A stretch of 64,000 nt of DNA from the NCBI GenBank assembly GCA_976551045.1, contig CDPCPM010000050.1, forward strand, positions 12,524,001 to 12,588,000, read 5' to 3'. The stretch is from Glaucostegus cemiculus. Taxonomy: Eukaryota. Positions 4,601 to 59,264 of the stretch are shown piece by piece (within the stretch, counting starts at the first letter, position 1; each line of letters starts with the position of its first letter). The position numbers and the translations under genes were made by a program. The notes beneath the pieces are model-generated. The model was not told the DNA's origin. It made no database searches and saw nothing but the letters and a program-made list of their open reading frames with translations.

Positions 4601-4749
4601 AAATAATTAATCTTAACTTGCTTGAGAAATTTTGAAGTGTCCTTCAAATTGTTAGCAATTAAGAGAAAATTGTTTTGTTTACAGATATTTGGTTTACTTG
4701 TATGTTTGCCTCAGATTTGTAACATGAACAAATGATGCATTTTGTCTCG

Positions 4750-4825
4750 GGATGAAGTCGAAATGGAATATCTAAAGATAGCACAAGATCTTGAAGTGTA
4801 TGATGTAAGCTATTTTTCAATCAAA
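4750..4825 (+). pseudogene. NF2: NF2-like exon 7 (76 nt): [25 protein letters not shown]
   Basis: Matches human [25 protein letters not shown] and has the same length. Acceptor is CG (4748-4749) and donor is CTAAGT (4826), so both are broken. G>D change in the conserved YGV motif. Confidence 0.92.
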
Positions 4826-6012
4826 CTAAGTGTTTTACAATGTTTTCTTTCTTGGTCATTGTTTCAGAACTTATGCTGTCATCTCTGTAGCAAGTCAGAT
4901 ATTTTCAAAGTGAAAGAACTTTTGTGTAAATCTGTAATTTAATTTCCTGTTATCACTTCATCCCCTTCAGTCTCCTCATTCCTCCCCAACCCATCTCCAC
5001 AAATATTCTGCATGCTTTGATGGACATCCTCTAGAAGGATCATTGCCTCCATGATTGTAGCATTGCTGCTTATTTAAGTGACAGGAGATAAAAATCCTGT
5101 CGTATGGTAGTCAATATATCAATTGTTTTGCTTTGCCAAACACTTGAATCTCTTTTTCAATGTCATGAGGCCTTTTAAATGTCATTGACCACTCTTGATT
5201 TTAAAACCACATCAGAATGACACACTCTCCTAATTTTAGTTCGGTTTGGAGTAATTGCTTAAGCTTCATTTCTATTCAGTTTCTCGCAGTTGTATGGAAA
5301 TTTTGTTATGCAGTTCTCTCTGAAAAATTTCTGTGAAATTAATCCCTAACAACTCATATTATTAAGTTTTTTTTCTAATGATGAACATTGCAGTGAATCA
5401 GCTCATCCACATACCACCTTGACTTCTGGAGAACTGTACTGATTTAACATTGACATTGCAATATAAGAAATTAAGAATATGGGATACAATTTAATTCGTA
5501 GAGGGTATACACTGTCTAAATAGTTTACTTTCAAGCTTGAAGTGTCGATTCCTTTCTATTATTGTTTCATAAATGCTTGATATTACTAGATAGTTATGCA
5601 ATTAAGTAGGCTCCTTGTATTGAATAATGTGAGCTGGGACTAATTTGATCTCAATGATCTGTCTCAATTTTGGTTAATAAAAATTGAAGCATTCTTAAAC
5701 TGTAGCAAAGTGTGGTCCTTGAAACTAAATGATAGTCAAAATTACTCATTACGTGAGACTAACTTGGGTCAAATTTTCCATTAACATTTGAAGTTAATAC
5801 AGATTTAAATACAAAATGAGCATTCTGCATAAAACACATGGTTATAATACAGTAACAAAGGATTGACATTTTTAAGTTACTATTTAATATAATTACTGTT
5901 ATGAAAACTTCATTTTTAAAATTTGGCTAAAGTTTTCGATGCTTTTTGAAAATAGAATATTTTCTAGAAATCATTTGGAATAAAGGCTATTGGGAAAATA
6001 TGGGTGGAATTA

Positions 6013-6257
6013 GGGTGGCATGATAGCGTAGCGGTTAGTGTGACGCTGTTACAGTGCCAGTGATTGGGGTTCTATTCCCATCACTGACTGTAAGGAGTTT
6101 GTACACTCTCCCGTGTCTGCATGGGTTTCCTCCAGGTGCTCTGGTTTCTTCCCACATTCTGAAAGATGTACAGGTAGGTTAATTTGGGGGTTTAAAATGG
6201 GTAGCGTGGACTCGGAGGGCCGAATGGGCCTGTTAACACGCTGTAAGTAAAAAAAAA
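6013..6257 (+). mobile_element. tRNA-derived V-SINE-like element, near full length
   Basis: Box A (tagcgtagcggttag) and box B-like (ggttctattccc); V-core gggtttcctccaggtgctctggtttcttcccacattc; CR1-like tail gggccgaatgggcctgtt and A-rich end. Confidence 0.85.
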
Positions 6258-6760
6258 TCTGCATTAAAATTGTAGTGAAAACTAGCTTGTTAATGATACT
6301 TGTCCTTAAATGTCAATTTGATATGGCATAGCCATAACCAGAGGTTGTTATTTTAGTGTGATGTGTTGGCCTTCAAAACCAGAAGAGTGGTCTGGCTCCA
6401 GCCACCAAAACAATCACCATGATTGTCCTTCTCTAAAGTCTCTTTATATCAGTGTGATAATAACTTGATACCTGTTTGAGACCCCCTTCTGCAAGAATAG
6501 TTTTCCCTGGGCATCCTGCTGTGCTTGGGACAATCAGGTTAAGTTTTGGTTGAAAGAGGCTCCCTTAGTAGGCCACAACAAACAAAATGCAGCAAATAAA
6601 AAAGGTCGCAATGGAAACCCAAAGGAAAAACAGAAAATGCATGAAACTCTCCCCAAGTTGGGTGGCAACTGTGGGGAGAGAAGTAGAGGTAATGTTTTCT
6701 GTATTAGAAGGATACAGACCTAATGGGATTAGTTGGATAGGTACAATGGGCAGCATGGAC

Positions 6761-6933
6761 ATTAAATTAAATTTTATTTACAGCGTGGTAACAGGCCCTT
6801 TCAGCCCTCCAAGGCCACACCGCCCATTTTAAACCCCCAAATTAACCTACCCATACGTCTTTCAGAATGTGGGAGGAAACCGGAGCACCTGAAGGAAACC
6901 CATGCAGACACAGGAGAAAGTACAAACTCCTTA
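6761..6933 (-). mobile_element. 5'-truncated copy of the same SINE, inserted in a CR1 3' tail (~6705-6975)
   Basis: Reverse complement of the 6090-6257 sequence. The CR1 tail resumes on the right (ttgtgctatacaactctatgac). Confidence 0.85.
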
Positions 6934-7149
6934 TTGCAAACAGCCCATTTGTTGTGCTATACAACTCTATGACAACTGGAAAAGTGAGAAAACATGGCTG
7001 GTTTAAGCTGCATAGAGGGTGAGGGGCCGAGAGTACAGGAAATGTCTGTAATGGGGTGCAGACTCAAGTTGTCAAGGTAATGATCACTTTAAAAACTGAT
7101 GGAGACAGTAAGTAAGTAAATTGAAACAAAGGTGTTGCCTTATCTATAG

Positions 7150-7950
7150 AGAGAAGCAAAGGATTGTTACCTAAATTGAATCCAATATTGTCATGACACC
7201 TGCCCAGACAGAAGATGAGATGCTGTTCCCTGAACTTGCATTGAGGACCATTGTAGCAATGTAGGAGTCTGAGGGTCAGAATGGGCTTGGGATGGAGAAT
7301 TAAAGTGACAGGTGACTAGAAGCTCAGGGTCACCTTTATGGACTGGTACTGGACGAGGTATTCTGCAAATCCGTCACCAAATCTAGATTCAGTTTCTCCA
7401 CTGTAGAAACCATATCATGAGCACAAAATACAGTGCTTCACATTGAAGGATTGTCTGGCCTTGGACTGGGGAACAGGAAGAGATGAGGGGTAGTTGTTGC
7501 ACATCCCCTAGTTGCAAGTGAAAGTGCTATGGGGAATGCTTGATAGAAATGTAAAGGCGAACCAGGTAGTTGTAGTACCTTGAGAATGCTGGAAGGGGAG
7601 GTGAGGGTTGATGTGTCTGGTGGTGGTACCATATTAATGGTGACAGAAATTATAAAGAGTGATTATTGAATGTGGAGGCTGGTGAGGTGTGAAATGATGA
7701 CCAGGGGAGTCCTATCCTATCCTTGTTCTGGCTGGTAAAGGATCATCTGAGAGCAGAATTGTGGAAAATAGAGGAGACACAATTGAAAGCCCTGTCAACT
7801 CTGGTGGAGAGGAAGCCAGTGTAAGGAAAAAAAATGAAGCTATCTTAAAGGTACTTGTGTGGAAAGTCTCATCAACAGAGCACCTATGACGGACAGAAAC
7901 TGAGAAAATGTTACAAACTACTCAGTACTCAAGTGATATTGGACACTTGT
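7150..7950 (-). mobile_element. Penelope-like element remnant (GIY-YIG region)
   Basis: Reverse strand resembles the YxGET..RLGDxFAEHL-type endonuclease coding sequence followed by the conserved gtcactttaattctcc segment; heavily decayed. Confidence 0.55.
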
Positions 7951-10900
7951 GACCACCTTTCTCTTAGACATTGCCACTCCCTCATCACCAATTCCCCTTT
8001 CTACCAGGGCAGACCACCACTCTCATCACTGATGTTGATTTCCTAGTCCACAAAGGCACCTCCCATAATCTTCCCACCAAGTTGTTACCACCAAGTATTC
8101 CAATTTTAATATGGTAAACTGTCATTTGCTCTCCTTGCCATTGCAGTTTGATATTGGACAGAAGAAATCTATAGAAATCAAAGTGAATGTAACATTTATT
8201 TCTTGTCAAATTACAGATTAAGATTGCAGTGTTTTTCAATATCAACATTTATTTTATATTTATGCTATACAACAATGATAGTCAACAGAGATTCAAAAAA
8301 GCAAGAAAAGGTTATACAACCTTATAGTAGACTTCATGAAGTTCTTTGAGGAATTTTGACCCAGATTTCAGTGTCATTGACAAGTCCATGATGTTCATTG
8401 CTGACCGCAATAAAATAATACCTATTAATAATATTCCCAGTTTGAACTTTGAACAGATACTGGGTAATTTTTCCATGGCAAACTTTCATTGCATTGTATA
8501 GGTGTAACAATGGTGCTAAGTTGAGTGGTAGAGCCTAGCCTCACTAACAAAATCAGTAAAAGTTTAGTTTGAAACATGCTGCCCCTTGATGTCCTGAATT
8601 TGGTATTTAAACTTGCAAAAACAGAAATATTCTGAAGCATAAACTTAAAACTCTTAAATGTGCTTAAAAAAAGTTAATTAACAAACCGTTAGATGTTTTT
8701 CATTAAAAAAAAGTATGAAAGATTTTTAAAAGACTTGACAAGCTGCTTTAAATTTGCTACCTGGGTGTCTCACAGCTGTTCACTTCTATTAAAATCTGTT
8801 ATGGAAAAACACTCCTCACAGTGCCTCATATCTGATGGAGAATCATCGGGTGACTTAACTTTTAAGTACTGGATAATTAGCCCAAGTTCTCGGTCCCTTC
8901 TGGAATTCCATGTTGATTTCAGTATAGAGTTGAGTTAAATAGCTACTGGCCATTGCTAGCTTTCTGCATTTGTATGTACATGTATGGTAATTCCAAAATT
9001 GTCATCGTTTTCAAAGAGTAATACTGGTGAACAACTAGTTGTTTTACTGTTACTGCAAAACCCAGAGCATCAATTTTCTTCCTTTTATCTTGCATGGAGC
9101 ATTAAATTCTTTCACTGGTTGTTACAAGTGCTGTTTTGCACCAAATGTAAATGTGACAGCAATCTGTCTTTTTCCTTAAACAATCAATCTGATTTCAGCA
9201 AAATTATATTGGCTCAAATCAAAAACATTCATAATGTGAATCATTTTTATGCAGCATGACAAATAAGTTGTTGCCTTTTTAACATGCATTAACTGGTTTT
9301 GGAAGGGAGACTAGAGAAAAATAACCAACTAATGAAATTTTATTAAATATTGATTATTTTGTGCTGAATATATACACAAGACAAATTAATGCAGCAGCAT
9401 ATTTGTAGAACAAGATGCAGTTCTTCATGTGTAATTTCCGCAGTGGGGCAAAGTACAAAATTGAAATACTCGATAAAATTGAAATAAAATTGAAACTAAA
9501 TAATTCAGTGGATTTAAACTAAGGAATGAAACGGGAATTTTGCAGCCGTGGAGGATCTGACATTTGGCAAAAGACAGATGAATTCTGAGTCAATAAACTG
9601 CAAAATAATGAGAGATCTGCAAGACCTAAATTCCTTGCACTCAGAGCTCCAATACTTCATGTAGGCAGAGTACGGTCTCCTGCCACTTCAGGTGATTTTG
9701 CAGAGGCATTTTGTTTTTTGCAGTTTGGGACTCACTGCATGTTTACACAAGTGTGAGTGGGGATCCCCAAATTTTATCATGTTTTGCATATTCATGCCAT
9801 GCTTGTTTGAACATTGCTACTCCATAGTTTTGAATAAAACTGGCAATGGCTCCCCACTCAATGTGGATTGAAGAACTTTATTTTGGAAATATAAATCGAC
9901 TGAGATTAAGAAGTTTAATAAATTACTGCTTTTATTTAAAATTTTGAAATTACATAGGACTTTAATTTGTGCTTTCCATGCTGATTCTTTGAATACATTA
10001 TAAATCTTTCACTTTTGCAACCTTTTCCTTGATTAACCCTTCCTTGTGGCTGGGTTTTACTCTTTTTTTCTCTCTCTAACCTGTTCTGGTTTTCTGCACG
10101 TCGGAACTCCCATTGCTGTTTGTGGCATAGTGGTGGGCAAAGTAAGGGGGTTACTTGTTGTCACATAGTCATTCAATTGTGAGACATTTAATTTTATTAC
10201 ATCAAGTACTATTAGTCTAAATGAGGAATGTTAATTAGTTATGTACTAAATAAATTGCATTGGCATACAGTAAATGTATAAGGATCAAAAAAGCAGCTAG
10301 AAAAAGTAGCTGGAAAGGTATTAAATAGATGGCAGATACAAATAAGAGAAAGAAGCTTAGTATAGCAATAGGGGGTCTAGTAGGACGGGAAGCATTGGAA
10401 CAAAATGCTGTTTGAAATCTTTGAAGTGATGAAGGAAGGAGACAATTATAATAGGAGCAAAGTAAAATAATTGCTTCATGTCCTAAATTATTGTATTTTC
10501 TATGCAAGTAGTGTTTCTTCTAGATAGTCAAGGATTGTGAGCTGAATTACTATTTTTAGCTCCTGCCTGACCTATTTGTTTAGTGTTATTGTTCAAATTC
10601 TCAAGGATCCATGTAATTTTAGGTGCTCATGATTTTGTCAAATGAATTAGATGCTAGCAAATTGCTTATTTCAAGCTAGATATGAATACTCATCTTCCTC
10701 ATTCTTTAAAAAAAAATGGAGTATATTGGTCAAACATTAAACTTTAACACAATCTCAGTGTGTGCAAGCTTATGTGATTTATGCAATTTTGTGATGACAA
10801 ATTTTTATGAAGTAATGTGTGAGTGCAATAAATTTAACTATTTTATTTTGCTTGGGTGAAATTTCTCATCAACTAAAGGGATCCAATCAGAATATCTAAT

Positions 10901-11089
10901 TTCCTGCAGTAAAGTCAAGCACTTTCCTAAACCCCATTAAAATGTCAGATATAGTGCTGTTAACTATAATTGCACCACATTACCTAAGTTATATTAATTA
11001 ATTTTAATGTAATTATGTTAAAAATCAAAGGTCTCTTGTTACAGGTTCCTATTGAGTTTCCTCATTCTTTTACATATGTTCTTTTTCAG

Positions 11090-11161
11090 CTTGCTATCAA
11101 ACCCTTGGGTAAAAATACTGATGTTTTTAAGTTTAATTCTTCAAAATTGATGGTCAATGAA
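11090..11161 (+). pseudogene. NF2: NF2-like exon 9 (72 nt): [24 protein letters not shown]
   Basis: Matches [25 protein letters not shown]. Acceptor tttttcAG and donor GTAAGA are intact. One codon shorter than the human exon. Confidence 0.92.
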
Positions 11162-12079
11162 GTAAGATGGCCAGTAGACCAATATCCTTTTGATACGACA
11201 ATGTAGATTATTAGATAAAAATTGAAATTTAAGAGTTATTTTTGAGTTGTTTTTACTCAAAGTTTTAACATGAGTTTGATGTTCCATCAAATGGATTCAA
11301 TCTGCAGATAAATGAGAATTGGGCTGGTCCTTTTCAAATGGCCCTACATAGGGTGGGGTGGGGGGGGGTGCACGGGACACACACAGCTTTTTTGCTTGCC
11401 TTTTATTGCAATTGAGCACTCTTGTGCCTTTTACAATTTTTTTTGGGGGGGAGGGGTGGAAAAATTTGAAAATGTTTCCTTGGTTAAGTTATGATACTGG
11501 ATTTTCCTGAAAAGAAATTTGGCCTGTCACCCTTGATGCAGTTGTTAAAATACTCCTGCACAAATAATTGTGAAAGACCCAACTCAGCAAACTAATAGTG
11601 TTAAGGGCATTGAGTCTCTTAATAGTATCAGCTGACTGATACCTGAGCTACTTGGATTATTATGGACAACTTTATATATAATATTTTTAGAAGGAATAAT
11701 CTATTTTTTCTAATTTTGATTTGCATTGTGATGATATTGATCAGTTTGCATAGCTTCATTTCTGCAAGTATGAAAGACCTAATTCATAATAATAACATAA
11801 TGCATTGACAAATACTTCCTCCTAGTCCAAAATTGAACAATGTGTCATTGACATTTTAATGTTCTAGCAACTGACTTCACATATTGAGCTAAGAAATTTA
11901 TAAATGATGAATGGAAGGGACACTTTGTTTTATTTTACTATTTATGAATGCACACTTCTAAAGTACTGAAAAATCGTATGGAGCAACAACTGGAAATCTT
12001 AGAATGACTAAGATTTGACAGAAGGTTTCACAAACAAAAACATTTAGAGAGATCTTAACATTTCCCTCAAATATTTTAG

Positions 12080-12193
12080 ATTTTGCACCTCTGTATTGGA
12101 AATCATGACCTGTTCATGTGAAGGTGAAGAGTGGACTATTTGGAGGTCCAACAAATGAAAGTCCAGGCAAGAGAAGAGAGGTGTAAGAAGCAG
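12080..12193 (+). pseudogene. NF2: NF2-like exon 10 (114 nt): [36 protein letters not shown]
   Basis: Matches [38 protein letters not shown]. TGA at 12119-12121 and 12125-12127, both at Arg positions. Donor mutated to ATAGAT (12194). Confidence 0.95.
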
Positions 12194-12779
12194 ATAGATA
12201 ATATATTAGACTGGTTTAAAAATAGCAATGTGGATTATCAACAAATAAAACAAACAAGATCTCTATAGAAGATGAATTTTAAGATTTGCTTGGACTACTT
12301 CCCTTTTCTGATCGTGAAGAAATCTGCCCAAAAGTGTTACCTGGGCTCTATGGTGCAGACTTCCCCTTCTCCAATATGGTTTGGAATCACATGCTCTTTG
12401 TAGGGGATCTATAACATTCCGTAAAAGTGTTCTCATAATGCAGCATATGCACCCAACTAAACTGAAGTTTTCACACAGTAAGGAAACCAATAATTTGTTA
12501 CTGAAAGGCAAAGAGATTAAAAAGCAATAATTTAAAATGTTTACAAAATGAAGTAAAGCTTGGGAGATGTGCATAGTATGCAGTTAGAACCTGAAATCAT
12601 AAAATTTAATAAAAAGTAGCCCTACACTTCATTCCGAATGTTGAGAAAGTGCAATGCAATTTAAAATAGATTTAACTTGAAATAGAGCCAAGATTCACAT
12701 TGCTCCCATTGATCACTTCCCACAGAACAGGAGAGGAAGCAAGTCATTCTCGATCCCAAGGACCAACTTATGAAGGGGA

Positions 12780-14195
12780 AGGATATCACCTTCCAAAATT
12801 CCATAGTTACTGGAATAGTTCCACAGACTAGAAGCCAGCAAATGTCACCCCCATTATTTAAGAAGAGTGGGAGAAAGAAAACCGGGAATGATAGACCAGT
12901 TAACGGGACATCAGTAGAAGGGAAAACACTAGAATCTATTATTGAGGAAGTGGTAACAGGGCACTTAAAAAATAGGGCAGAGGCAACATATGAGGGAAAC
13001 CATGCTTGACAAATCTGCTTTTTGAGGTTGTAACTGGCAGATCAAATGGATGTGGTATAGTTGGATTTTCAGAAAAGGGTTCTACACAAGGTCATTAAAC
13101 AAAATTAGTGCACATTAATATATTGATTAATGAACAGAAGGCACAGGATGGGAATAAACTGGTTATATTCAGTTTGGGAGGTTTTGACTAGTAAAGTGTT
13201 GCAGGGTTCCATGCTGGGGTCCCAGCTATTCACAATCTCTATTAATACTGTGGTATTAACACTTTGGGTATTAAAATGTGATATATCCAAGTTTGTAGCT
13301 GATACAAAGATGGATGGCATTATATATTATGAGATGAAAGCAAAGCAGTTTTGAGGGGACAGGAGGTGGTGGTTGTATAAAGGCAGGTGGTATGGGTGAG
13401 GGCATGGATGATGGAATACAGTATGGGAAAATGTGAGGTCATCTACTTCAGTAGGAAAAAGAAAGGTAAAGCATTTCTTAAATGGTGAGAGATAGAAAGA
13501 TGTTGATGTTCAGAGAGACCTGGAAGTTGTTGTACATAAATCCCTGTAAATCAATGTGAAGGTACAACAAGCAATTAGGAAGGCAAATAATATGACAGTC
13601 TTTATTGCAAGAGGATTTGAGTATAATAGCAAAGATATTTTACTATATTAACGTAAAGTTCTGGTGAATCTGCACCTGGAATAATGTGTACAGATCTGTT
13701 TCCCTGTTTAAGGCAGGATATACTGTATGAGATTAATTCCTGACGTGAGGGGATTATGGGATAAAGGGATTACTGCATGAGTGGAGATAAGCAGAATTTC
13801 CCTATGTGCTCTAGAGTTGAGAAGAATGGAAAGTGATCTCATTGAAGCATATAACGTTTATGCAGAGTAGAGGGGCTGGATGCAGGGATAATGTTTCCCC
13901 TGGCTGGATTGTCTAGAATCAAGGGTCAGGGTCTCATAATAAGAGATTAGACATTCAGAGCTAAGAAGAGATTTTTTCAGAGAGCAATGAATCTTTGGGG
14001 TTCTCTACCCATGATCTGTGGAAGCACAATTGCTCAATGTATTTGAGGTAATGATTGTTATCTTTTTATTAAGAGAATTGAAGGATATTGGGTTGGTAGG
14101 TGAATGTAGCGTTGAGGTAAAATATCAGCCATGAACTTATTGAGGGGTGGAGCAGGCCTAGTGAAGGGGTACTGAGTGTCCTACTCCTATTTCTT
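12780..14195 (+). mobile_element. Degraded CR1-clade LINE (RT to 3' tail)
   Basis: PLFKKSGRKKTGNDRPV..SVEGKTLESII, VLQGSMLGSQLFTI, ISKFVADTKMDG; tail cagccatgaacttattgaggggtggagcagg..ctactcctatttctt. Confidence 0.85.
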
Positions 14196-14704
14196 AATGT
14201 CTTCTCATCAGACAAAATTTGATACCAACCCAGAAAAGAATGTAATAGAAAAGCTTGGTTAAAGATAAGGTTTTTAAAGGATGTCTTCTTGGAGGACCAA
14301 GAAGCAGAGGGGTGGTGTGATATAGGGGGTGAATTCTGCAGCTTTGAATGAGCTCAAGTTCACATTGGGTGGAAGATGGGAGGTTAACCATGAAGGTTAA
14401 GTTGGTGAAAGTGGCAAATGTAGTGATTTTGCCTGCAGGTGAGCTGAGGAATTGACTGAGTTGGACAATATTGTGACAGTGGGAATAAGTAGTCTTGGGA
14501 CTGGACCATCGTCAGATGGTCACTTGGGGTCAACCACATCACCAAAGTTGTGAATGGTTGTGTTCAGTTCCAAATATGTAACAAGAGGATGGAGACAGTG
14601 GCTAGGGAACAGAGTTTATGATGCATTATTACAATGGATAGAAACAGTCAATCACAATTGGCTCTGGCCACTAATCTTGTACTAATTCAGATCTTAAATC
14701 AAAC

Positions 14705-14866
14705 GTGTATTGTGCTCAGTTCTGGTCACCTCACTACAGGAAAGATGTGGAAGCCATAGAGAGGGTGCAGAGGAGGTTTACAAGGATGCTGCCTGGAATG
14801 CGGAGCATGCCTTATGAGAGCAGGTTGCGGGAACTTGGCCTTTTTTCCTTAAGGAGGATGAGAGGG
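14705..14866 (+). mobile_element. Short, relatively young CR1 ORF2 fragment
   Basis: YCAQFWSPHYRKDVEAIERVQRRFTRMLPGM..YESRLRELGLFSL. Confidence 0.9.
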
Positions 14867-15634
14867 AGTGAATGCATCAAAGTTGTGGGCAGTTCTTTTT
14901 AAAAATCAGTTTACTTTATTAAAGTAGTTTAGGAATTGCAATGTTAATCAACAAATTGTGATCTAAAAATCAATTTTGCTGTTGATTAGAAAGGATGAAC
15001 TGTAAAATATCCCAAATGTTTAAATGTTCTCATTGAACATTCTATTTTAATACTTTTAATATATGTCTATAAAATTATTTTGAAACTTAAAATAATTCAA
15101 AATTTCTCCATAAATCATAATGCATTGTTTGGTTCTAATGCAACAGCTAAATTAGTAGCATCAGTCTCGATATAATACATTATATTTGAGTAATTATAAA
15201 GCATTGTTTTAAAGGTTTGTTTAAGTGATCAGTAAACATTTAAAATTAATGACAAATCATTTATGTATGCAAACTGCATTTCAAAATATGCTTGCTTAGT
15301 CTTGCAGCTAAATGATAATGAAGCAAAGAATATCAAACCTACATCATGATTGTGACCTATGCATGTTATGTATTGTAAACTATATAAATGAAATATTTGT
15401 CAAATTGAGATTAATGCAGAGTGTGCTGTTTTTAAAACATATGCAGTACATATGCTATTAATCTTATTCATCTCCACGACTGCCTGAATTTTATGAAACA
15501 TTATTATGACTTATCATAAGCAGTGTGAAGTGATTTTTTTTTTACAACTGTCTTGAGCATGTTGGTAATTGGGCATAACCTGTGTACAGTGAGATGTATC
15601 TGTTGACCTTGTAGCGATGATTTTAAATTTCTGT

Positions 15635-16530
15635 AAAAAATAACATTATTTATAAAGCACCTTTAACGTAGCAAAGTGGTGCATTGCACTTCACAGGAGT
15701 TATCAAAACACAATTTAGTGTCATATAATGAGGCATTGGAGTAGATGAGCAGTGGTGATTAAAACGTTGGGGTAAGAGAGGGGAGAAGTCTGTGCTGAGA
15801 ATCAGAATCAGTTTTTATTGTCACTACAATATACACATTCAGTATGCCTAGGAGCAAAATACTGTACTCCACAGGTCAAGATGCTTGTCACATTAAAAAA
15901 ACAAACAACGAGAGAAACAATGAGAGAATTTTGGAGATGATGATTTGGTGGCTGGAGATGAGGCTGCCTTTGGTAGAGTAATTTCATTTAGGATTGAGAG
16001 TAAAATTGAAGGAGTACAGATGTTGTAGAAGGCTGTAGGGGTTGGATAGATCACTGATGGGGAGGGGCAAGGCCAGGGAGAGACTTGTAAACCAATGTAA
16101 GTATTTTAAAATTGAGAAGTTTCTTAATTTTGAACCAGTGTAGGTTAGTGAGCTCAGGGGTGATGGGTGAACATGACTTGTTGCTAATCAGAATATGGGC
16201 AGTGTTTTGGAATGTCCTTAAATTTACAAAGGGTAGAGCAAGGAAGGGCTTGCTAAAATCTAGTCAAGTAATCAGTCTAAAGTTACCAGATGTGGTTCAG
16301 AGTTTGTGTACAAATAGAGGCCAGCATGGAGTGGGGCAATATCATGGAAGTAGAGGTCTTGTTGATGGCTTAAATATTTGGTCAGGAACTCATGCAAAGG
16401 TCAATATGACATCAGTGCTGTGTCCTGATTCAGTTTCAGAACTTTTTTTTAGGAAGAGGAATGGAATGGGTTGTTCATTAAGCGAGTTTGTGCTGTGCTG
16501 AAAACAATGGCTTCATTCTTTGTTGTATTT
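15635..16530 (-). mobile_element. Old L2-like LINE 3' remnant (related piece at ~14200-14620), interrupted by an (AGAATC)n-tailed fragment at 15798-15910
   Basis: Begins tttataaagcacctttaacgtagcaaag, resembling the reverse of an L2/DeuSINE-type tail, followed by purine-rich antisense RT remnants. Boundaries approximate. Confidence 0.5.
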
Positions 16531-16768
16531 AGCTCCTAATATAAAATGTAGCAGCTAATCTTAAAGGCCTGCTATCTTTACTAAAACACCATTTTTATAA
16601 CCATTTCTTTTAAAAGCACTTGTTTTATTAATGAACTTAATCATTCATTTGATTCAATTAAATGATTCAACAGAACTAATGTTTCTTTTGTTGAAAATTA
16701 CAATTTAATTTAATTTACTCATTATGGATGGTGATGCATTTATGCTATTTTTCTTTACCATTTGGTCG

Positions 16769-16891
16769 ATGGAACATCAAAGGCATGCACAGGAGAAACA
16801 GCTGAGGGAGGAAGCAGAAAGAGCAAAGGATGAACTGCAACACCGATTATTGCCTTTTCAGGATGAGGCACAGTTAGCAAATGAGGCTTTG
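16769..16891 (+). pseudogene. NF2: NF2-like exon 11 (123 nt): [41 protein letters not shown]
   Basis: Matches [41 protein letters not shown]. Acceptor is CG (16767-16768); donor GTAATT is intact. Confidence 0.93.
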
Positions 16892-17004
16892 GTAATTAAC
16901 ATTGTTAGTAGATAAAGTGATACCATTTCAATAAAAATCTTGACTGTATTTCTACTTCTGAATAAACAGCCAGCAATTATACCTGAGGATTTACCTGTCA
17001 TTAG

Positions 17005-17216
17005 CTATCTGAAGAAACAGCAGCCTTACGTGCAGCAAAGGCACAGGTTGCAGAAGAGCAGGCCAAGTTATTGGCCCAGAAGGCAGCAGAGGCTGAGCAA
17101 GAGATGCACAGATTGAAAGTTGCAGTTTTGAGAACAAAGGAAGAAAGACTGATGGAGCAGGAAGTGTTGGAGGCTGAGGTGGTTGTGCTTAAAGTGGTTG
17201 AAGAATCTGAGAGGCA
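17005..17216 (+). pseudogene. NF2: NF2-like exon 12 (212 nt): [70 protein letters not shown]
   Basis: Coiled-coil match to human exon 12 ([15 protein letters not shown] is identical). AG/GT intact, phase-2 end, two codons shorter than human, preceded by a 113-nt intron. Confidence 0.93.
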
Positions 17217-18289
17217 GTAAATGGTTTGTTCATTGTGATAAAATCCGTTTAACAGTGGTGCACATTGTTGATTGTCAGATTCTGTATCAGCAAAATGAAA
17301 TCTGAGCAGAGGTTATTATTCTTAACCTGTTCACAAATCTAACGGGTCATTTTCAGTGGTTGTACTGCTAGGGGCTAAAAGCTTATCCTACAAAAGTTTA
17401 AATAATATCTGTCAGACCGCTCCATTCTCATTCTTTTGCTGTGTGCCTGTTCATATGAATTGATTGCAATGAAAACAACAGTAAATTCTTTTCGATTTTA
17501 AGAAACTAAGAATATACTTAGAGCAAAACTAAATTCTGTTAGCCTTCAATTCATACCATCCATGTTGTGGTTACAGTTTGCCATCCTTCATGATGAGATG
17601 GGTTTGGTTAACTGATAGTCAGAACAAAGACATTGGCTTAGATGTTTATCTCACTGCAGGCTGAAAAAGATTGAGAGTTGGTGATGGGGAGGAATTAATA
17701 AGGGAAACATGACTCCAACATGAAATGTACGTGAGTGCCAACTTGAAAGTTATTAGTGCTGCACAGCTTTCCCTGGCATTGACATCCTTCCTCCCTGAAT
17801 CTCCATGATAAGGATTGCTGGGGATCATACCCATAGCCACAGCATGGTGCCTCTGATAATATCTTCCCCACCACACCCTGGCTGTCCCCACAGCATTTTA
17901 CATATTAGCCACACATCTATTTTGTGAATGAAAACAAGAGGTTTGGTAGGAGCTCTGTGTGTTTGGCTTCGTCAGGTTCTTCCCAAGAACATTGTCATGT
18001 TGTTGCTTGTTTATTTGTAAAACCTTTTTTAAACCAATCATTTATTAGATTTGAAATTTATTGTGATATAGTCTATAGATGTTGAAGGATCATGTGAACT
18101 CTGAGGCCACTTTTATCATTATGTAATATTGTTAAGTGAATAACTTCCTTTGTATCTATTTTGCATTCAAGTTCTTCTCGTAACATTTTTATCATTTTCA
18201 ATGCAATACTCGATTACATGCTTAAAGTGAAAGATAAATTATGTTTTAAAGAAACAGCTTATCCCATGTCATTCTCTTTGGTTTGATAG

Positions 18290-18395
18290 AGCAAACAAAA
18301 TTGAGCAATTGAAGCAAGATTTGCAGGATGCACTGGAATCTGAGCATAAGTCCAAACAAAGACTTGTGGAGATCACCAACAAGTCTTTATACATG
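18290..18395 (+). pseudogene. NF2: NF2-like exon 13 (106 nt): ANKIEQLKQDLQDALESEHKSKQRLVEITNKSLYM
   Basis: Matches [35 protein letters not shown] with the same length and phase; AG/GT intact. Confidence 0.9.
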
Positions 18396-18439
18396 GTACA
18401 GACTTATTATTTTCTTTATTGATGCATAACTTAATATTA

Positions 18440-18800
18440 AAGGCTGTAGTGCCCTTGCAGTGCAACTGCATTTCCATTCATTCAGCATCCAAAGCACCTA
18501 CTCCAAGTGAAACAATGATTTACTTGCACCTATTTCAATTTGGAACACTTGATTCATGAATTATAATGTCTCCTTTGTGTTGAGGAGACCAAAAGCAGAT
18601 TAGGTAAGCATATGTGCAATGCTACTATGAGTTTCTGTTTGCCAGTGACCTCTCAGTCCCATTATGATCTCTGTCTTTGGTTGACAACAGTGCTCTAAAG
18701 AAAATCAATTTCATCTCAAGATTCAGCAGCTCATCTTCTGACAAAGCAGTTACAGCCATCTAGGAGCCAAATTGAGTTCAGTATATTCAGGTAATGATTC
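18440..18800 (+). mobile_element. Penelope-like GIY-YIG remnant
   Basis: ccaagtgaaacaatgatttacttgcacc and gaggagaccaaaagcagattagg resemble QV..xFTC and GETKxRLG coding sequence. Confidence 0.5.
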
Positions 18801-18814
18801 TGTGGCTTCCTGTT

Positions 18815-19135
18815 CTCCTTGGGCAGTCCTTTAGGTCAAGGATGACTTGTTTCCACTCCACTTCTGTGATTTTGGATGTGGTTGAAAAATCCTATTTTAG
18901 ATCTGCCACGAATGATGCATAATGGGGTAGGTAGGTGGGTTGTTTAGGATTTTGTGCATACGTGACCTTCATGTGCTCATGACCAGAGACTTGAGGTGCC
19001 CAGTTTTGGATGTTCTTCCTTCATTTTGAGTAGTCAGAGGCCAGGGATTCCAATGATTGGTAAGATGTTTTTAGTGAGACATTTAGAATGTTTTTGAAGT
19101 ATTTTCTGCATTCTCCTGGAAATCTGTTGCCTTAA
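18815..19135 (-). mobile_element. RTE-clade LINE 3' remnant
   Basis: Reverse translation GNRFPGECRKYFKNILNVSLK..LESLASDYSK*RKNI resembles the RTE C-terminal G.R..G..RKRFKD.LK.SLK..E.LA.DR..WR motif. Confidence 0.6.
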
Positions 19136-19261
19136 CCAAGCTGTTTTATTAATATTTTGATGAAAAACCATTGACTTGTTTTGTTTCTGCACAGTTTCTC
19201 CCTAATCTACTGAATATTTTCAGCATTTACATTTTTAATTTGCATTTACAGTTTGCCTTTC

Positions 19262-19590
19262 TTGCACTTTCAGGGCATCTCAAAGCATTTTAACAGGCAA
19301 TGTGATACTTTTCAACACTTGAAGTGTTCAGACATATTACACTGCCTGTAAAATGCTTTCATACCTTGGGAAATGTGGCAGTTTGGGCAATTTACAGAGT
19401 AAAGAGTGGGAGAGCTCTCTTTACTCTGGTTGTCCCTAGATGCCATCACTAAAACAGACTGGTCATAATCACATTCCTCTTGGAATGCATGCAATTTTTT
19501 TTCTCCATTTCCTACATTACATTCCAGACAAATTTTGAGAATACTCATTTGGCTGTAAAGCACTTTAGAACATCCCGATATCATGATAGA
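19262..19590. mobile_element. DeuSINE/L2-tail-like remnants in both orientations, containing a long palindrome
   Basis: cagggcatctcaaagcattttaacaggcaatg (minus) and ttggctgtaaagcactttagaacatcc (plus). Confidence 0.5.
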
Positions 19591-19619
19591 GTCCCTTTGG
19601 TGGGAGTATACAATCCTTG

Positions 19620-20095
19620 AGGCACAGAAATAGGGCATCCGGCCCACCAGTTCTGTGCTGGCTATTAGTAGAGCAATACGTGCAATTCCACTCCCCCTAC
19701 TCTTTCCCTGTAGCCCTATAAATTGTCATTTACCTACCTGATTTTGTTTTAAAGCTCTGATCTCTCTATACACCACCCGTACACAGTGAACTCCAGACTG
19801 TAGCAGCTCTTCAATGTTCTCAACAAGCATATTTACTTGCAACCCCTCGTCTTCTGCCCGTCACTTTGAATCTGTGACTCCTGGTGCTTGAATTGTATAA
19901 TAATGGGAAAAGCTACTCTCTTTACCCTATCTAAACCAGCTATGATCATGTACACCTCTATCATATATCCTTTCAAATTTTTCTTACTCCAAGGAGAAAT
20001 ACTATGGCATCTTCAATCTAATCTTGGGGGTTAATCCCTCATTCCTGGAATCACTGAACTGAATTTCTTTGGCACCCTCTCCAGGTCATTTAGAG
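19620..20095 (-). mobile_element. CR1 3' remnant
   Basis: gcacagaaatagggcatccggcccacc tail and antisense ORF2 remnants (taccctatctaaacc..tacacctctatc). Confidence 0.65.
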
Positions 20096-20099
20096 GAGG

Positions 20100-21110
20100 G
20101 CTCCCACAACTACCTTGACTACGCTTCCTTCTACTCCACCTGCTGTAAGTATTCATTCTCACAGTTTCTCTAGCTCTTCTGTATTTTGCCTGATCAACCC
20201 CTCCCACACTGGTGCTTCTGAGATGTCTTACCTGCTGCTTAACTATGATTTCCTCTTCACCACAGTTGACAGGGCTCTCAGCCAGACCTATTCCATTCCC
20301 GTACTATTCGCCTCTCACTCCCTGTCTTACCAGCCAAAGCAAGGATTGGATTACCCTTCCGTGGCACTGTCCTCCATTTTTACTGGACCATCTCCCTAAA
20401 TTACGACCAACTTTAACAGACACCTGCACCTTGCTGCTCCACTTTCAGCATTCCAGAGGGGTTGTTCCCCTGTGACTCCTTGGTTCATACTCCCATCCCC
20501 TCCAACACCCACTCCTTTTCTCATGACACCTTCACGTCCAATCACAGGAAACACAACCCCTGCCCTTTTACCTGTTCCCACCCTACTGTCCAAGGACTCA
20601 GATGTTCATAGAAAATAGAATTACACTGCATAGAAATGGGCCTTTTCAGCTCCCCTTATCCTTACCGATCATGGTGCCTATCTGTGCTGATGCCATTTGC
20701 ATGCATCAAGCCTGTATCCCTCCTATGACTTTCCTATCTAAGTACCTGTCCAAATATCTTTTAAATGGTGTAAATGTATTTGGCTCTCCTACCTCTTCTG
20801 CCAGCTTGTTCCAGATAACTACTACCCTCTGAGTGGAAAAACCTTGCCCCTCAGATCGCCTTCAAATTTCTCCCTCTCGTCTTAAATCTGTGCCCTCTAG
20901 TTCTAACCCTCATACCCTGGGGGAAAAGACCCTGACTATCTATGCCTCTCATAATTTTATAAACCTCCTGAGGTTGCCCCTCAGCATCCCACGTTCTAAT
21001 GAGAATAAACCCGGCCTATCCAATCTCTCCAAACCACAGCCTTCCATTCCAGGCAACATCCTTCCAGGTGAGGCAGCAATTCACTTGTACTCTATCCAAT
21101 TTGGTTTCCA
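20100..21110 (+). mobile_element. Penelope-like RT-C/GIY-YIG remnant split by a minus-strand CR1 3' fragment (~20607-21060)
   Basis: HNYLDY..CK..SQFL-like coding remnant up to gtccaaggactcag, resuming after the CR1 piece with ttccaggtgaggcagcaattcacttgtac (FQVRQQFTC). Confidence 0.65.
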
Positions 21111-22198
21111 GGTATCAATATTTATAAGTGTTCAATTTTATGATTTTCATTAACACAATCGACTCTATAACGTACATGTCCTTTATTTATGATGCTTTTT
21201 TTATTTTTACGGTAAATGATCCTTAATATTAGGAAGCTCAAAGATAATATTTCAGTATTAACATTAAGTGGCAATTGAAATCCCTGACATCATTGGTCTT
21301 TGGAAATTGAGTTCTTATGGTTGTAGAAGAATGTTGCCCCTAGACATGAATCATGTTTTAAGAAAGACGAGAACAGGGAAAAAAAAAGGGTAAGCATGTG
21401 ATAAAAAGGTGAGAATCAATTGCATGTGCCCCTTAAGTTTAATGCTTCAGGAAAAAGCAAGATGGTGAGACTTTAAGGAACACAGGGGATGGGGATGTGT
21501 GAAAGAATGTGCATTTCAAAGATTATATAATTTTGTTTCCCTTCCCCTTCAATAAATGATATTGTGTGAAGATTAACCTGGTCAACAGAGCCTTATTATC
21601 AACGATAGCTCTAGACATCTGGTAAAGTTGTATCCAGGTAGCATTACTCCCTCACAAACACACATTCCTTTGCTGTTACAATCCATGAACCCAAGTGCTA
21701 CTGCTTAATTGAAGGCTGCCACATGTAATGAGATGTGTCACGTCAGAGTCCAGCATCAATGACAAACCCACCATTCATGGAATTTAGAAGAGGTACAATA
21801 TCAAGATTCACATGGACTTAGTCGGTGCCACTTTGGATGATGTAAATGCTACAATGAATGGTATATGGAGCAAGTTATGGCCAAGAAGATATTGTCAAAT
21901 TGGGAGATGAAACTTGCATTCATTGTCTGTCAGTCCCCATCCTTGACAGACATTTGCTTTGTTCTCTCCACCTCTGCCCCTTCTCTGCAATTTTCCCCTG
22001 TTCTCATGAAAAGTATTGGCCTGACCTCCTCAGTAGTCTGTTATTTCAGAACCCTACCAATGCAATCTGCTTCAAAAATTTAGTTTTGTTGCATCAAGCA
22101 AACCACAGTTCATTATTTACATAAATGTTTTGCACATTAAAATTAGATTTACTTAAATATTGAATAGAATAAGAGCTTTATTTACAATTATCTTACAG

Positions 22199-22326
22199 CC
22201 CTTAGATTCAAGCACAACTTACATGCCAACGGAATTCCCAAGCCTTAACTTTGAAACTGAGAACTTCTCATTTGATTTCAAGGACACTGACATAAAACTG
22301 CTTTCCGTGGAGATAGAAAAAGAAAA
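22199..22326 (+). pseudogene. NF2: NF2-like exon 14 (128 nt): PLDSSTTYMPTEFPSLNFETENFSFDFKDTDIKLLSVEIEKE
   Basis: Contains the merlin-specific SFDFKDTDxKxLSxEIEKE motif and has the same length as human. Donor mutated to ATGAGT (22327). Confidence 0.93.
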
Positions 22327-22639
22327 ATGAGTTTTGCCTTTATCTTGAATAGATGTCATAAACCCTTTGAGTAGTATTGAATGTAGTGAGCATCAAACAA
22401 AAGGTTTATAAATGACTGTTATTTTAATGTTGTTTGAAAGAAAAACCTAGCAGCTCTTTCTTTTGTGATTGAGAAATGGACCAAAATACACTCATGTCAG
22501 CCTGCTTAGTAAATGTACTTCATTAGTATTCTCTTGATGATGTCAGCAAAATACATTCTCTAGACCACTTTAGGGAGAAGTGCCTATATTCTGGATTTAA
22601 ATGAGAAAGCACTTGGAAAAACTTAACACCTGGAAGTAA

Positions 22640-34872: not shown

Positions 34873-34899
34873 TCATTGTCGTCATTCCTGTCACAAGCA

Positions 34900-36831: not shown

Positions 36832-36991
36832 AATTGAGTACATGGAGAAAAGTAAACATCTCCAAGATCAATTAAATGAACTGAAGACTGAAATTGAAGC
36901 ACTAAGGCTAAAAGAACGGGATACTCTTTTGGATGTCATACACAATGAGAATATGGATACAGAGAAAAACAAGTGCAATACTTTGCAAAAG
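36832..36991 (+). pseudogene. NF2: NF2-like exon 15 (160 nt): [53 protein letters not shown]
   Basis: Near-identical to human [29 protein letters not shown] over the first 29 aa. Acceptor tacAG and donor GTATAA intact; frame open. Confidence 0.95.
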
Positions 36992-39410: not shown

Positions 39411-39750
39411 GGCCTGCGGGGCCGGAGGTGGTCTGACTGCGGTGCCGGAGGTGGTCATCGGATCGGACTGTGGGGCCGGAGGTGGTTGTTGGACTGTGGG
39501 CTGTTGGAGGTTGTAGGACTGCGGGGGCTGGAGGTGGTCATCGGTGTGGGGTGAGGCTGGGACTGGGAGATGTAATGTTGAGGTTCTGGGAGACGTGTTG
39601 TACCAGCAGACCGAAGTCCATGCGGCTCCAATGTTTTGATCTTTTTGTCCTGTTGTCTTTTATTGTTTTTAATGTCTTTTGCACATTGGCCTGTGGAGTA
39701 CGATATCTCGCCTTCATGTATACATGAAAGTGACAATATTCTGATTCTGA
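39411..39750 (+). mobile_element. 5'-truncated copy of the GC-rich VNTR retroposon family, ending (TTCTGA)2
   Basis: ggccggaggtggtc/ggactgtggg repeats and tgtcttttgcacat are shared with the reverse complement of 48770-48960; tail gtgacaatattctgattctga. Confidence 0.75.
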
Positions 39751-41605: not shown

Positions 41606-44600
41606 GTATGGTTGGAGGGACACACGAGACTGCAGATGATGGAATCAGGAACAAAGCACAAACTGGTGGAGCTCAGCGGGTCGAACAGTATCTGTGGAGT
41701 CAAGGGGGTGGTTGGCATTTCAGGTTGAGTCCTGCATCAGGTTTTCTCTGAAATAAAAGTATTTGAAATCATTACTTCATAAGTCAAGTGCTGGTATGAC
41801 CTCTCTGAAGCAGTGGTAAGCAGCAAATTAGGAAACATGCCAGAGATATTCTGTGGCCTCTTGGATTGATCATTATTGAGGAAACTGAGAGACAGTGTAA
41901 CCTTGATCTCCACAGAAAGTCTTTCCACAGAATGTCACAAATATCAGCGATGACAGTCTTGGAAAACCTGAGCCACCAATGTATTGTTCATCAGGGAGGG
42001 ACGGGTTGGATGTGGTGTCACTTAAGACTGTCTGGCTCTTTGATGATTGACGTGTTTGTGCCCAAGGTTCTGAACTAACCAGGCCATAACAATGGAGTGC
42101 TGCCAGCTGAGTGACTTTCATGGAGTGAACATTTCAGCAGCTGTTCAATTAGCATCCAAAATAAACAGGCTGTATAGTATCCAGATTTCAGGCAAATGTT
42201 TGGTTGTACATTCCACATTGGTTAGCAGCTACAGAATATTAATGTAACTACTTCCACAGGGCAGAGGAAGGCATTAAAGGCTTTTTCCTCTGTCTTGAAC
42301 AGACCTATTGAACAATTATGGGAAATAATAGTCATTATATACTATTTTTGGAAAGCCAGCTATTGCAGTAAAAAGCTTTTGACAATCTAGTGATCACTTT
42401 AGACAGCCATGCAGACTGAGACACGTTTGTTAATCGGTTCATGAATTTATAGTGTGCAATGTTGACAATTGCAGTAGTAGGATCCTTGAAGATGATGCAG
42501 TTTGAATCATTAACTCAGGAAAAAGACACGGAAGCTACAAGGAAAATATTGTATATATCCCCCACCCCCAACCCCACCAAGAAGGACATATGATTTTAGT
42601 GCATGATTCACCCACACCGGTTTATTTGTGTGCTAATAGTATGTTAAATTTGTGTTAGCTGCAAAAGGGGACCTGATTTTTGAGTTGCAAGTGCTACTTA
42701 AATGCAGAGTGCACCTTTTAAAGGTAGGTGAATGATGGCTGCAAGGGAGCTTCCTCAGATCAGAGAAATAGGCAATGATACTTCAAGAATTCCATATGTC
42801 GATGAGGTAGTGATTGTCAAAGTTTTCAGAGTGCTTGCTGCCCAGTAGCCACCATGTGACTTGCTGTCAAATTCCAAATGCAGAGGACTACTACAGACTG
42901 AAGGACTCATGATTACTTCCAGGATAATAGCATTTCACCTGCTTGATTTGTAGCTTGTTGCATACTAGCTACTCACTGAGAGCAGATTCCCTTTCAGTTC
43001 TCAAACTGATGATTTCAGTTAAGGTTTATGTAAGATTTTAAGATACCTACAATCAATGCAAACCATCGTGTTTTCTCTGCCTGTTTGTCTTTGGCAGCAG
43101 CCAACAGGATGAAGTTTTCTCCACATACACAGTGCCCTCCGTAAATGCAGCAGTGACCTACAGCTCTCGGATGTTGCTTTGATCTTCAGCAGCATTCTTG
43201 GGGAAGACTGATGCATAAAAGTTGAGAGTCATGGTCACCAAGATCTAAGTAACATCTTGGATCTGGCAGTGCACTGCTGAATTTGAGGAGGGCACTCACA
43301 GACAATGCCATCCGTGTCCTTGTTTAATGTTTTATTTAACTGCAGCAGGTGCAAGATTTCAGTGACTACTTTTTTTGCGAAAAGGAAGCCATTCAAGTCT
43401 TTGCACTTGCTTGAAGGTAAGACCATTTTTATTTCTTTCTGCCTCCGGACTGAGGTGCCAGCTGAAGCTCTGCCTGCCCCCTGTCCTGTCTCCCATCACC
43501 CCCACGCCCTTAATTTTCAAGCAGTTTCACCTGCTCTGACCTCTCTTCATTCTCAAAGTCACGCTCAATTCCCTGAGAAAACCCCATCTCAGCACCCGTG
43601 CCTGCAAACAACTTGTTTCAGCGAAGGTTTTAAATTTTAAAAAAAGTAATTCAGTCCTAGCCTGATCATGCAGATTCTCAAACTTTAGTATAGAACAGCC
43701 TCAAAAATGGGTTCAATGCACTAGCACCCACAAGATATAATCGAGCAACTGTCCTATAAATACTTCATGATCTTTTTGAAGAATGCAGCAAGGGTCCTTT
43801 ATTTCACTTAATATAGTGTGCAGTAGAACAGGTTTAAAGCACATTGGAGGCTGATGTAGGATATTTCTTATTAAGCTATGCCCAGGTATGTTTTCCTAAA
43901 AAAAATACTTAAATACTGAACATTTATTTCAAAGGATTTTTTCTTATTTTCAACTCTTACCTTTCATTTCCTTGATGATCTAAATTATGGCTTGAAATAT
44001 GATAAGTAACAATTCCCTTTCCTACTGTTATGTGGAGGGGAACATTCCAGACACACAAACACAACTGCAAACTTGAATATCCATTTGAAGACACGAGATG
44101 TTGGAGTAACAGGCTAGTGGATAATTACCTCCTTGACTAGCACTATGTCAGAATAAATCAATGTGAAACTGACATAAATAGTTAGAATTAAGTCATCAAG
44201 TATCCTGCACAGGGGAATTCGTTTCCCATCTGCAATAAAGGGAAAGTCGTACTTTAACATTTGGTTGCCAAGTTTTAAGACAACATTTTATTGATGAACC
44301 AGTCACAGGGGATTGACTTCCACACCTGACAAAAAGTTGATTTCGGCTAACCAGCCCTGTAAACTAATGCAGTCAGATCTCCATTAAGTGAATAACCAGC
44401 TGTTGGAAAATTATATTTTGCTAACATAAGAACTTTCTTACAAATCATACTGAATAGTTTTTTTCTGCAGAGATTTGTAGTTTAAAAACTTGAATGTAAC
44501 AAGTGGCAAACAAAACCATGAAACAGTTGATATGGTTTCTACCAAACACAAGACAGTTCATGCAGGACCAAATGAAACTTAACGTGGCATAGAATGCAGA

Positions 44601-46083
44601 TTGAAACTAGTTCAGTTTCTTAATTTTTGCAGTCTGCTGAAAAGAATGAAATGGTATTATTGTAATTGGACCTATTATATTTCATTCATACAAATCAACA
44701 ATCATGACATCTCCAAAGACTTGAGATGTATAATCCAAAGAAAGTGTAATATTGCAAAAGAGAGCATTCTTTTTAATATTGAGTCAATTTTTATTTATCT
44801 ATGTTTTTTGAATTCATGTATATTTCACAAGCCTGGTAGTAAGATATCTGACGCATTCTATTCATTTTACCTCTTGCGTTCACTGTTATATGTGAATTAC
44901 TTGTGTCACAATGCATTTATCCCTTCCAGTCAGTGGGGGCACTGTAGCACAGCAGAGAGACTGAGAAGGCAGATATCATTGAAGTCTGCCATGTGTAGTT
45001 TACATCACAAATGTAAATATGTGCAACTTTGAGAAGGTAGGTTGGAAGTTGCAAATTCCCTGTATAATGGCTGAATTGGTCAGTGTACAGCTCTACTGAA
45101 AGGAATGCAGTCAAGGGCATTCATATCAAGGGCAGAGTTGCATTGAAAGAGTCTTTAAAGTGTTTCTTCTAGCAGGTATTGACTGTCCCTCTAATCCTGA
45201 TGAGTTCATTCCCGTTTTTGGCTGGACCTCTACCTTCAGGAGCAGGTGATGTGCCTTTACTGTCTCCTGCGGTGCAGATATGAGAGCTATGGTCATTTTA
45301 CCTGTCATCAGCAAGGCATGAGCACCAGTTCCTGCAGGTGACAGATCTACCACCAGTGCTGGTAACCTGCAGTGCCGCTGATCTGCAATGAGACTTGCAC
45401 TTTTATAGTTATCCACTTTGTACTTCCTGGGTACCAATATTCTTGGTGGAGATCTGCTAACAGCAATAAGGACATTGGTAGGTCTGAAGGTGTAGATACT
45501 GATCAAGAGGTAAGCACTAATCTACTCCAAACTTCCTCAAGTTTCTGGAAAGAGTGAACACCATTCCTTTTGAAGAAATGCTTTCACAGAGGCAATAGAG
45601 AAAGCAGCTGTGAAGCTGAATTATTTATTGTGAGATTACATTGTCACCTCCTGAGCTCCTGTATATTGCCAGTTTGCTCTCTCCAGGATTTCACTGATGG
45701 TTTTTGGAGAGCTCAGGAATTCAAAAACCACTGTTATGGCAGCTGCTTATAAATGATTAATGTATTTAAATGATCAACTAGTTGTCTTTTGGGGAGCGGA
45801 AGGTGGGATCTTGATCATTTGCTGCATGCATTTGGATTCAATTTGGAATATTACCACTGCTCTTTACCCTGTCCACTCTCCCCACCCCCAACATCCCTGC
45901 CACCAACTAACACAGTTTCTCACATACACTTGCTCCCTGAACTGCTCAGAATTTTGCAGCAATTTTTTTGGTTTATTTCATATTAACAGATATGGGCTGC
46001 CAATAAAATATATATTTCACTGTTATTTTGTTTATGAACAGACTTCTAAATTGAATTCTAATTGCATTTTCCCTTCCTTACAG

Positions 46084-46134
46084 CTTACTCGACAAAGCAC
46101 TAAATCTCGCGTCACCTTCTTTGAAGAATTGTAG
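46084..46134 (+). pseudogene. NF2: NF2-like terminal exon 17 coding part: LTRQSTKSRVTFFEEL*
   Basis: Matches the isoform-1 terminus LTLQSAKSRVAFFEEL*. Strong polypyrimidine tract plus cAG acceptor; TAG stop. Confidence 0.95.
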
Positions 46135-59245: not shown

Positions 59246-59264
59246 TCATGGTACTATAGTAGTT

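Follow-up and report, generated by a model that had tools for sequence, protein, structure and literature searches.

Two merlin genes have been described in vertebrates, merlin2 (nf2a, the type of human NF2) and merlin1 (nf2b), and the second of them has been lost in most placental mammals (PMC6978628). Mouse Nf2 nulls, in an animal that has no nf2b, have been reported to die early, and in zebrafish nf2b is described as the dominant early paralog (both in PMC11646113). Also in zebrafish, the double knockout of nf2a and nf2b is reported to give tumors, and the two genes are reported to compensate for each other in fin regeneration (PMC12749930). In this study, we analyzed a 64-kb stretch of Glaucostegus cemiculus DNA (contig CDPCPM010000050.1; hereafter, the window), which holds the remnant of an NF2 gene at positions 4750 to 46134. 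An initial annotation had read this locus as a dead, intron-containing merlin copy, and our analysis confirms that reading through nine ordered exons with retained introns, splice lesions and two stops. We show that the copy belongs to the nf2a/merlin2 clade, the ortholog type of human NF2. It is most likely the only nf2a of its lineage, so that what was lost here would be the true NF2 ortholog, with nf2b as a buffer.

Remnant exons of an NF2 gene and their lesions

Searches with tblastn using shark, chimaera and bichir merlin identified nine NF2 exons, collinear on the forward strand and totaling 1,042 nucleotides (nt). Eight of the nine have E-values between 2e-8 and 2e-36; the remaining one, exon 17, was found at 0.008 by tblastn and at 2e-5 by a profile search. 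The exons correspond to numbers 7, 9 to 15 and 17 of what we take to be the human NF2 numbering. Five of the 17 splice dinucleotides are broken, all of them as the initial annotation had listed them, and the remaining 12 are AG or GT. The exon 7 remnant (4750-4825, 76 nt) is preceded by CG at 4748-49 and followed by CT at 4826-27; the donors of exon 10 (12080-12193) and exon 14 (22199-22326) read AT, at 12194-95 and 22327-28 respectively; and exon 11 (16769-16891) has CG as its acceptor, at 16767-68, and GT as its donor. Intact AG and GT dinucleotides flank exons 9 (11090-11161, 72 nt), 12 (17005-17216, 212 nt), 13 (18290-18395) and 15 (36832-36991), whereas exon 9 is one codon and exon 12, in frame, two codons short with respect to shark nf2a; for the 5' edge of exon 12, a decayed acceptor three bases upstream is an alternative reading. 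Exon 17, detected by both types of search at 46084-46134, is the last coding exon and ends in a TAG stop. In addition, exon 10 contains two TGA codons, at 12119 and 12125, which are located at the end of the FERM domain in Arg columns that are invariant in 16 of 16 nf2a proteins, and this bears out the two stops at Arg positions that the initial annotation had noticed.

The 6,264 nt between 4826 and 11089 are expected to hold introns 7 and 8 together with exon 8. Neither loose tblastn nor a profile search found a match to exon 8 in the window (best E-value 0.36, outside the intron), and the same profile search scores exon 7 at 8e-15 and exon 9 at 4e-13. The missing exon 8 and the shortened exons 9 and 12 are additions to the lesions listed in the initial annotation. 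Exons 1 to 6 had no match in the window by tblastn or profile either, a result that is uninformative because their expected position lies upstream of the window start. There are no frameshifts in the 1,042 exon bases. Cryptic splice sites occur within 30 nt of every broken site, and none of them bypasses the exon 10 stops or restores exon 8. Because five splice sites are broken, two stops interrupt the reading frame and exon 8 was not found, the spliced frame is unable to yield merlin.

The eight introns, of 113 to 14,505 nt, are kept at the positions of the parent gene, which is a feature of unprocessed pseudogenes, and their presence rules out a processed pseudogene. Introns of the minor AT-AC class were likewise ruled out by comparison with their consensus, since the two AT donors, ATAGAT and ATGAGT, pair with the acceptors CG and AG. 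The locus is a real, old, unprocessed pseudogene of the NF2-ortholog type.

Assignment to nf2a and course of the decay

Over 346 aligned columns, the window is 78% identical to the nf2a proteins of the sharks Heptranchias and Pristiophorus, 74% to chimaera nf2a, 67-71% to bony-vertebrate nf2a and 60-61% to chondrichthyan nf2b. The initial annotation had suggested a phylogeny, and the tree of 34 proteins built on these columns places the window in the nf2a clade with mouse merlin and fish nf2a (support 100/100) and outside the bony-vertebrate nf2a group (99/99). Its terminal branch measures 0.30, whereas those of the two intact shark nf2a genes measure 0.007 and 0.020. The approximately unbiased (AU) test, with 15 rows, rejected the union of the window with elasmobranch nf2b (p-AU 1.55e-150). 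At the 29 columns that are diagnostic for nf2a or nf2b, 22 show the nf2a state, four the nf2b state and three a state of their own. Among 14 further columns, 12 show the chondrichthyan state and none the bony one, and the shark state is present in six of ten, most of the shark-type residues being encoded in exon 14; the residues at 4808 and 18327, for example, are present in chondrichthyan nf2a and absent from both bony-vertebrate nf2a and nf2b. These column states favor a chondrichthyan placement of the window within nf2a. The host is accordingly a cartilaginous fish, most likely an elasmobranch, and probably a ray, judging by the types of its repeats. As a side observation on this tree, PMC12749930 calls the nf2a/nf2b pair fish-specific, yet proteins of the nf2b clade are found in chimaera, bichir, sturgeon, turtle, ostrich and koala.

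Contigs from four runs, X1 (organism A, possibly the window's own sample), X4 (B), X9 (C) and X12 (D), were compared with the window over 4500-22500. The X1 contig over 4500-5109 has no other letters and four gap letters, and a second assembly thus reproduces the lesions of exon 7; the one over 16875-17264, which spans exon 12, has no differences. The two stops, the acceptor of exon 11 and the donor of exon 14 lie outside the X1 pieces listed. A collinear locus is present in organisms B, C and D, with divergences of 6.7%, 6.5% and 7.3% over eight listed pieces each. At position 4748, in the exon 7 acceptor, B and C have an A, that is, a normal AG, and D shares the C of the window. Between 4541 and 4974 there are 22 listed places of difference, about the density of B's contig, with no row at 4796, 4803 or 4826. 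From this density and the missing rows, it is likely that the CT donor of exon 7 and two of the amino-acid changes at invariant columns are also present in organism B, and the decay was therefore likely already under way in the common ancestor of the window's lineage and these relatives. Other changes in conserved codons of exon 7 are private to the relatives: those at 4805 and 4818 to B and C, and the one at 4760 to B.

Two further places in this comparison deserve mention. At 9959-9965, the contigs of the three relatives stop matching and continue with other letters (up to about 980 unmatched letters, in one contig each of X4 and X9); this candidate deletion point may be the site at which exon 8 was excised, or else an insertion in the relatives. 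Position 12088 is covered in each of the three relatives by two contigs of single-copy depth, both with a G there; the second contig could be nf2b, an ERM gene or another nf2a. The contigs of organism B also skip two high-copy short repeats, at 5989-6256 and 6697-6974, which are insertions younger than the split from B and usable as lineage markers.

Of the columns that are invariant in the 16 nf2a proteins, 44 of 224 have changed in the window, over all nine exons and at an even rate (19 of 95 in exons 7-11 and 25 of 129 in exons 12-17); by comparison, 12 of 346 columns differ between Heptranchias and Pristiophorus. Simulations of neutral decay (150 runs per setting) at 0.08-0.10 substitutions per site gave 36-48 changes at invariant columns, 3.0-4.6 stops, versus two seen, and 2.3-3.1 splice lesions, versus five seen (P 0.07-0.17), so the counts of the three kinds fit a distance of about 0.1. 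The amino-acid changes, in contrast, are milder than simulated at these distances, with a mean BLOSUM62 score of 0.36 versus about -0.2 (P 0-0.03). In the comparison with the relatives, which covers introns for the most part, 848 substitutions are accompanied by 343 gap letters, yet the window's exons have no frameshift. Since the changes are milder than neutral and the frame is unshifted, we infer that the gene first passed through relaxed selection while its frame was still translated, and died afterwards. In total, the decay amounts to roughly threefold the distance per lineage between the window and organisms B-D. The decay at CpG sites proposed in the initial annotation is real and accounts for only part of the changes, as it fits 5 of the 10 Arg columns that have changed out of 22, and 9 of the 44 changed invariant columns.

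Distribution of nf2a and nf2b in cartilaginous fishes

The sequence searched was the 64-kb window, and the question of whether its copy is the ortholog or a spare was addressed through a protein collection, the contigs of the relatives and published papers. A protein search with exon 12 of the window gave nothing above 77% identity among the best 120 of 444 matches; an intact sister copy in this lineage should have headed this list. In a search with residues 440-596 of Pristiophorus merlin, the only chondrichthyans among the best 120 of 970 matches were Pristiophorus, Heptranchias and Callorhinchus. Three elasmobranch nf2a clusters have eight members, four from Heptranchias and four from Pristiophorus, both of which belong to the Squalomorphii. 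No elasmobranch was found among the members listed for eight other nf2a clusters (at most 15 each; 15 of 792 in the largest); with the tetrapod members, shark nf2a shares about 86% identity, less than the 90% required for a common cluster. The elasmobranch nf2b cluster served as a control: it comprises 43 members, of which the 15 listed represent four rays (Leucoraja, Mobula, Hypanus and Narcine) and eight galeomorph sharks (two species of Chiloscyllium, Scyliorhinus, Mustelus, Hemiscyllium, Carcharodon, Stegostoma and Cetorhinus). The proteomes of these animals are therefore represented in the collection, with nf2b and without nf2a. Squalomorphs presumably keep both genes, although the nf2b of Heptranchias and Pristiophorus is not among the 15 of 43 listed.

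Published reports point in the same direction. The supplement of PMC6978628 marks the whale shark (Rhincodon typus) as "merlin2 lost". A preprint on the Greenland shark (10.1101/2024.09.09.611499) places NF2 among 81 genes that are single-copy in ten other elasmobranchs and multiple in the Greenland shark, and reads the NF2 copies of the latter as a species-specific duplication. The ten NCBI species named in it, which evidently constitute the single-copy set, are five rays and five galeomorph sharks. The Greenland shark is a squalomorph, and the retention of both old copies would be a simpler reading than duplication. In a second Greenland shark preprint, the main text does not mention NF2. 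The comparison set of the first, as named there, includes no squalomorph, and other "duplications" among its 81 genes may also be old copies that rays and galeomorphs have lost.

Several points weigh against reading the window copy as the only nf2a of its lineage. The sequence search covered the window, and an intact nf2a may lie elsewhere in the genome; a gene that is missing from annotated proteomes may still be present in the genomes, and the protein searches comprise the best 120 matches; and the second single-copy contig over 12088 in three relatives could be an intact nf2a. A Pfam scan of 149 of the 200 stop-to-stop frames of at least 45 amino acids outside the NF2 span yielded no neighboring gene. 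From the literature, the main text of PMC6978628 gives merlin2 in all vertebrates, leaves the whale shark unmentioned and doubts tumor suppression by merlin1, and zebrafish nf2a crispants are reported to show growth phenotypes that are absent in nf2b crispants, so the two genes are not fully redundant (PMC12749930). Finally, AU tests on the place of the window inside nf2a gave p-values of 0.27-0.53, with 0.53 for a position below all other nf2a.

Alternatively, a lineage-specific segmental duplicate of nf2a may have died here while an intact nf2a survives in the genome beyond the window; the second contig over 12088 would suit this reading, and the mild amino-acid changes and the unshifted frame would also fit relaxed selection on such a copy. 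Nevertheless, we consider this improbable: no protein among the best 120 of 444 exceeds the 77% identity to exon 12, no ray or galeomorph nf2a appears among the listed matches or cluster members, and NF2 is reported as single-copy in the ten elasmobranch proteomes of 10.1101/2024.09.09.611499. That each of the four runs has a single contig at the places listed in exon 7 is a weaker argument in the same sense, as contigs show presence and not absence. The last of the points above would suit a third ancient merlin paralog, duplicated before the split of sharks, chimaeras and bony fishes and dead here. The free tree also places the window below all other nf2a (support 37/0). The residues found only in chondrichthyan nf2a and the six of ten shark-only states speak against it, no third merlin clade emerged in the protein searches or in PMC6978628, and we give it very little credence. 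A lost old paralog was the preference of the initial annotation; the old duplicate is nf2b/merlin1, whose union with the window was rejected (61% versus 78% identity), and loss of the ortholog itself, which had been ranked as less likely, fits best, so that this ranking is reversed.

It is also highly unlikely that the locus is still in use or only seems damaged. Exons 12, 13, 15 and 17, with their intact splice sites and open frames, the absence of frameshifts and the milder-than-neutral changes would be compatible with a short helical and C-terminal product of exons 12-17, but the invariant columns of these exons have changed at the same rate as those of exons 7-11, and the donor of exon 14 is broken. 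As for assembly errors, three lesions lie outside the X1 pieces listed, but X1 and, to some extent, other organisms also carry those of exon 7.

Loss of the only nf2a, our preferred reading, could be explained as follows. Jawed vertebrates would have inherited both nf2a and nf2b; in the window's lineage, nf2b would have taken over the shared Hippo-pathway and cortex work; and selection on nf2a would have relaxed, after which the gene would have died and reached its present decay of some 0.09-0.10 substitutions per site. Rays and galeomorph sharks likely lack nf2a in general, and rays together with most familiar sharks likely live on nf2b alone, as the mirror image of the nf2b loss of placental mammals. 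Buffering by nf2b is likely by analogy with another fish, the zebrafish. The statement in the initial annotation that NF2 is essential rests on the mouse, an animal without nf2b, while cartilaginous fishes possess a second merlin gene.

Surroundings, number of losses and comparison with known cases

In the Pfam scan of the surroundings, the matches were limited to two pieces of reverse transcriptase and two hits far under the cut-off, the Rfam scan gave nothing, and the 18 kb that follow the last exon (46135-64000) yielded no host gene. A poly(A) signal may be present at 46659. A decayed long interspersed nuclear element (LINE) occupies 2174-2845 and 3161-3532 on the forward strand, with an RVT_1 domain (E-value 5.5e-14) and, after it, a C-terminal piece that is widespread in the genomes of chordates. 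Another LINE, with RVT_1 at 6.6e-31, lies on the reverse strand at 56353-57364; a forward-strand frame at 57824-58390 resembles its continuation, and the two would then form an internally inverted insertion. GC-rich tandem arrays with periods of 22, 35 and 25 occur at 48914-49313 and 39465-39525, in related repeat stretches, and yield long spurious frames on both strands.

In the usual tree, rays are sister to all sharks, and two losses of nf2a must then be assumed, in rays and in galeomorphs. If Galeomorphii and Batoidea are sister groups, a single loss suffices. That tree is matched exactly by the known distribution, in which chimaera, Heptranchias and Pristiophorus have an intact nf2a and the ray and galeomorph proteins include none. 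One preprint reports that all loci recover Galeomorphii plus Batoidea and that this grouping was rejected after filtering (10.1101/2025.08.19.671162). In another, exons give shark monophyly, and ultraconserved elements place the squalomorphs, with weak support, either as the sister group of the other sharks or outside a group of rays and galeomorphs (10.64898/2026.02.13.705779). Both describe the elasmobranch root node as unresolved or conflicting. We regard one loss in a common ancestor of rays and galeomorph sharks as rather unlikely. If it were true, lesions common to the remnants would constitute a rare genomic change bearing on the elasmobranch root, sharks would not form one clade, and the Greenland shark, with its "NF2 duplication", would simply have kept the two ancient copies. 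The remnant can be dated and its lesions compared: identical lesions in rays and galeomorphs would mean one loss and favor a clade of Galeomorphii plus Batoidea, and different lesions a convergent loss of a tumor suppressor.

NF2 loss kills mouse embryos and drives human tumors, and vertebrates without nf2a would show that nf2b can likely carry the essential role. They would also constitute a natural test of merlin1 function, a question that PMC6978628 leaves open. In addition, the longevity claim for the Greenland shark would take on another meaning, given that its duplication was defined against species likely lacking nf2a. The literature, consulted mostly as brief entries with few subscription papers, gave no account of an nf2a pseudogene or of a wide loss beyond the whale-shark note in a supplement and the Greenland-shark claim. 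The reciprocal loss of ohnologs is a known kind of event, and for nf2a the whale shark had already been recorded; the remnant, the wide pattern and the two tests that it opens appear to be new.

The closest described genes are the nf2a of Heptranchias perlo (XP_067861829.1) and that of Pristiophorus japonicus, with which the window copy shares the 78% identity, the exon order, the phases and the shark-type residues. These genes give full-length proteins, whereas the window copy has five broken splice sites, two stops and no exon 8, and its end branch is 15-40 times longer. The ohnolog nf2b/merlin1 (PMC6978628) belongs to the same family and is present in rays and galeomorph sharks; with 61% identity and its clade rejected, it is presumably the surviving partner of the window copy. 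The whale-shark entry concerns the same gene, missing in an elasmobranch, as a one-line record of absence in one species, given in that text without remnant, lesions or range. The loss of merlin1 in Eutheria reported in the same paper likewise removed one merlin ohnolog, although the opposite copy was lost in the window's lineage. Lastly, the loss of noggin1 (PMC10869764) is similar in that a supposedly universal vertebrate gene is missing while its paralogs are kept; that loss was reported for elasmobranchs as a whole, in contrast to nf2a, which is kept in squalomorph sharks.

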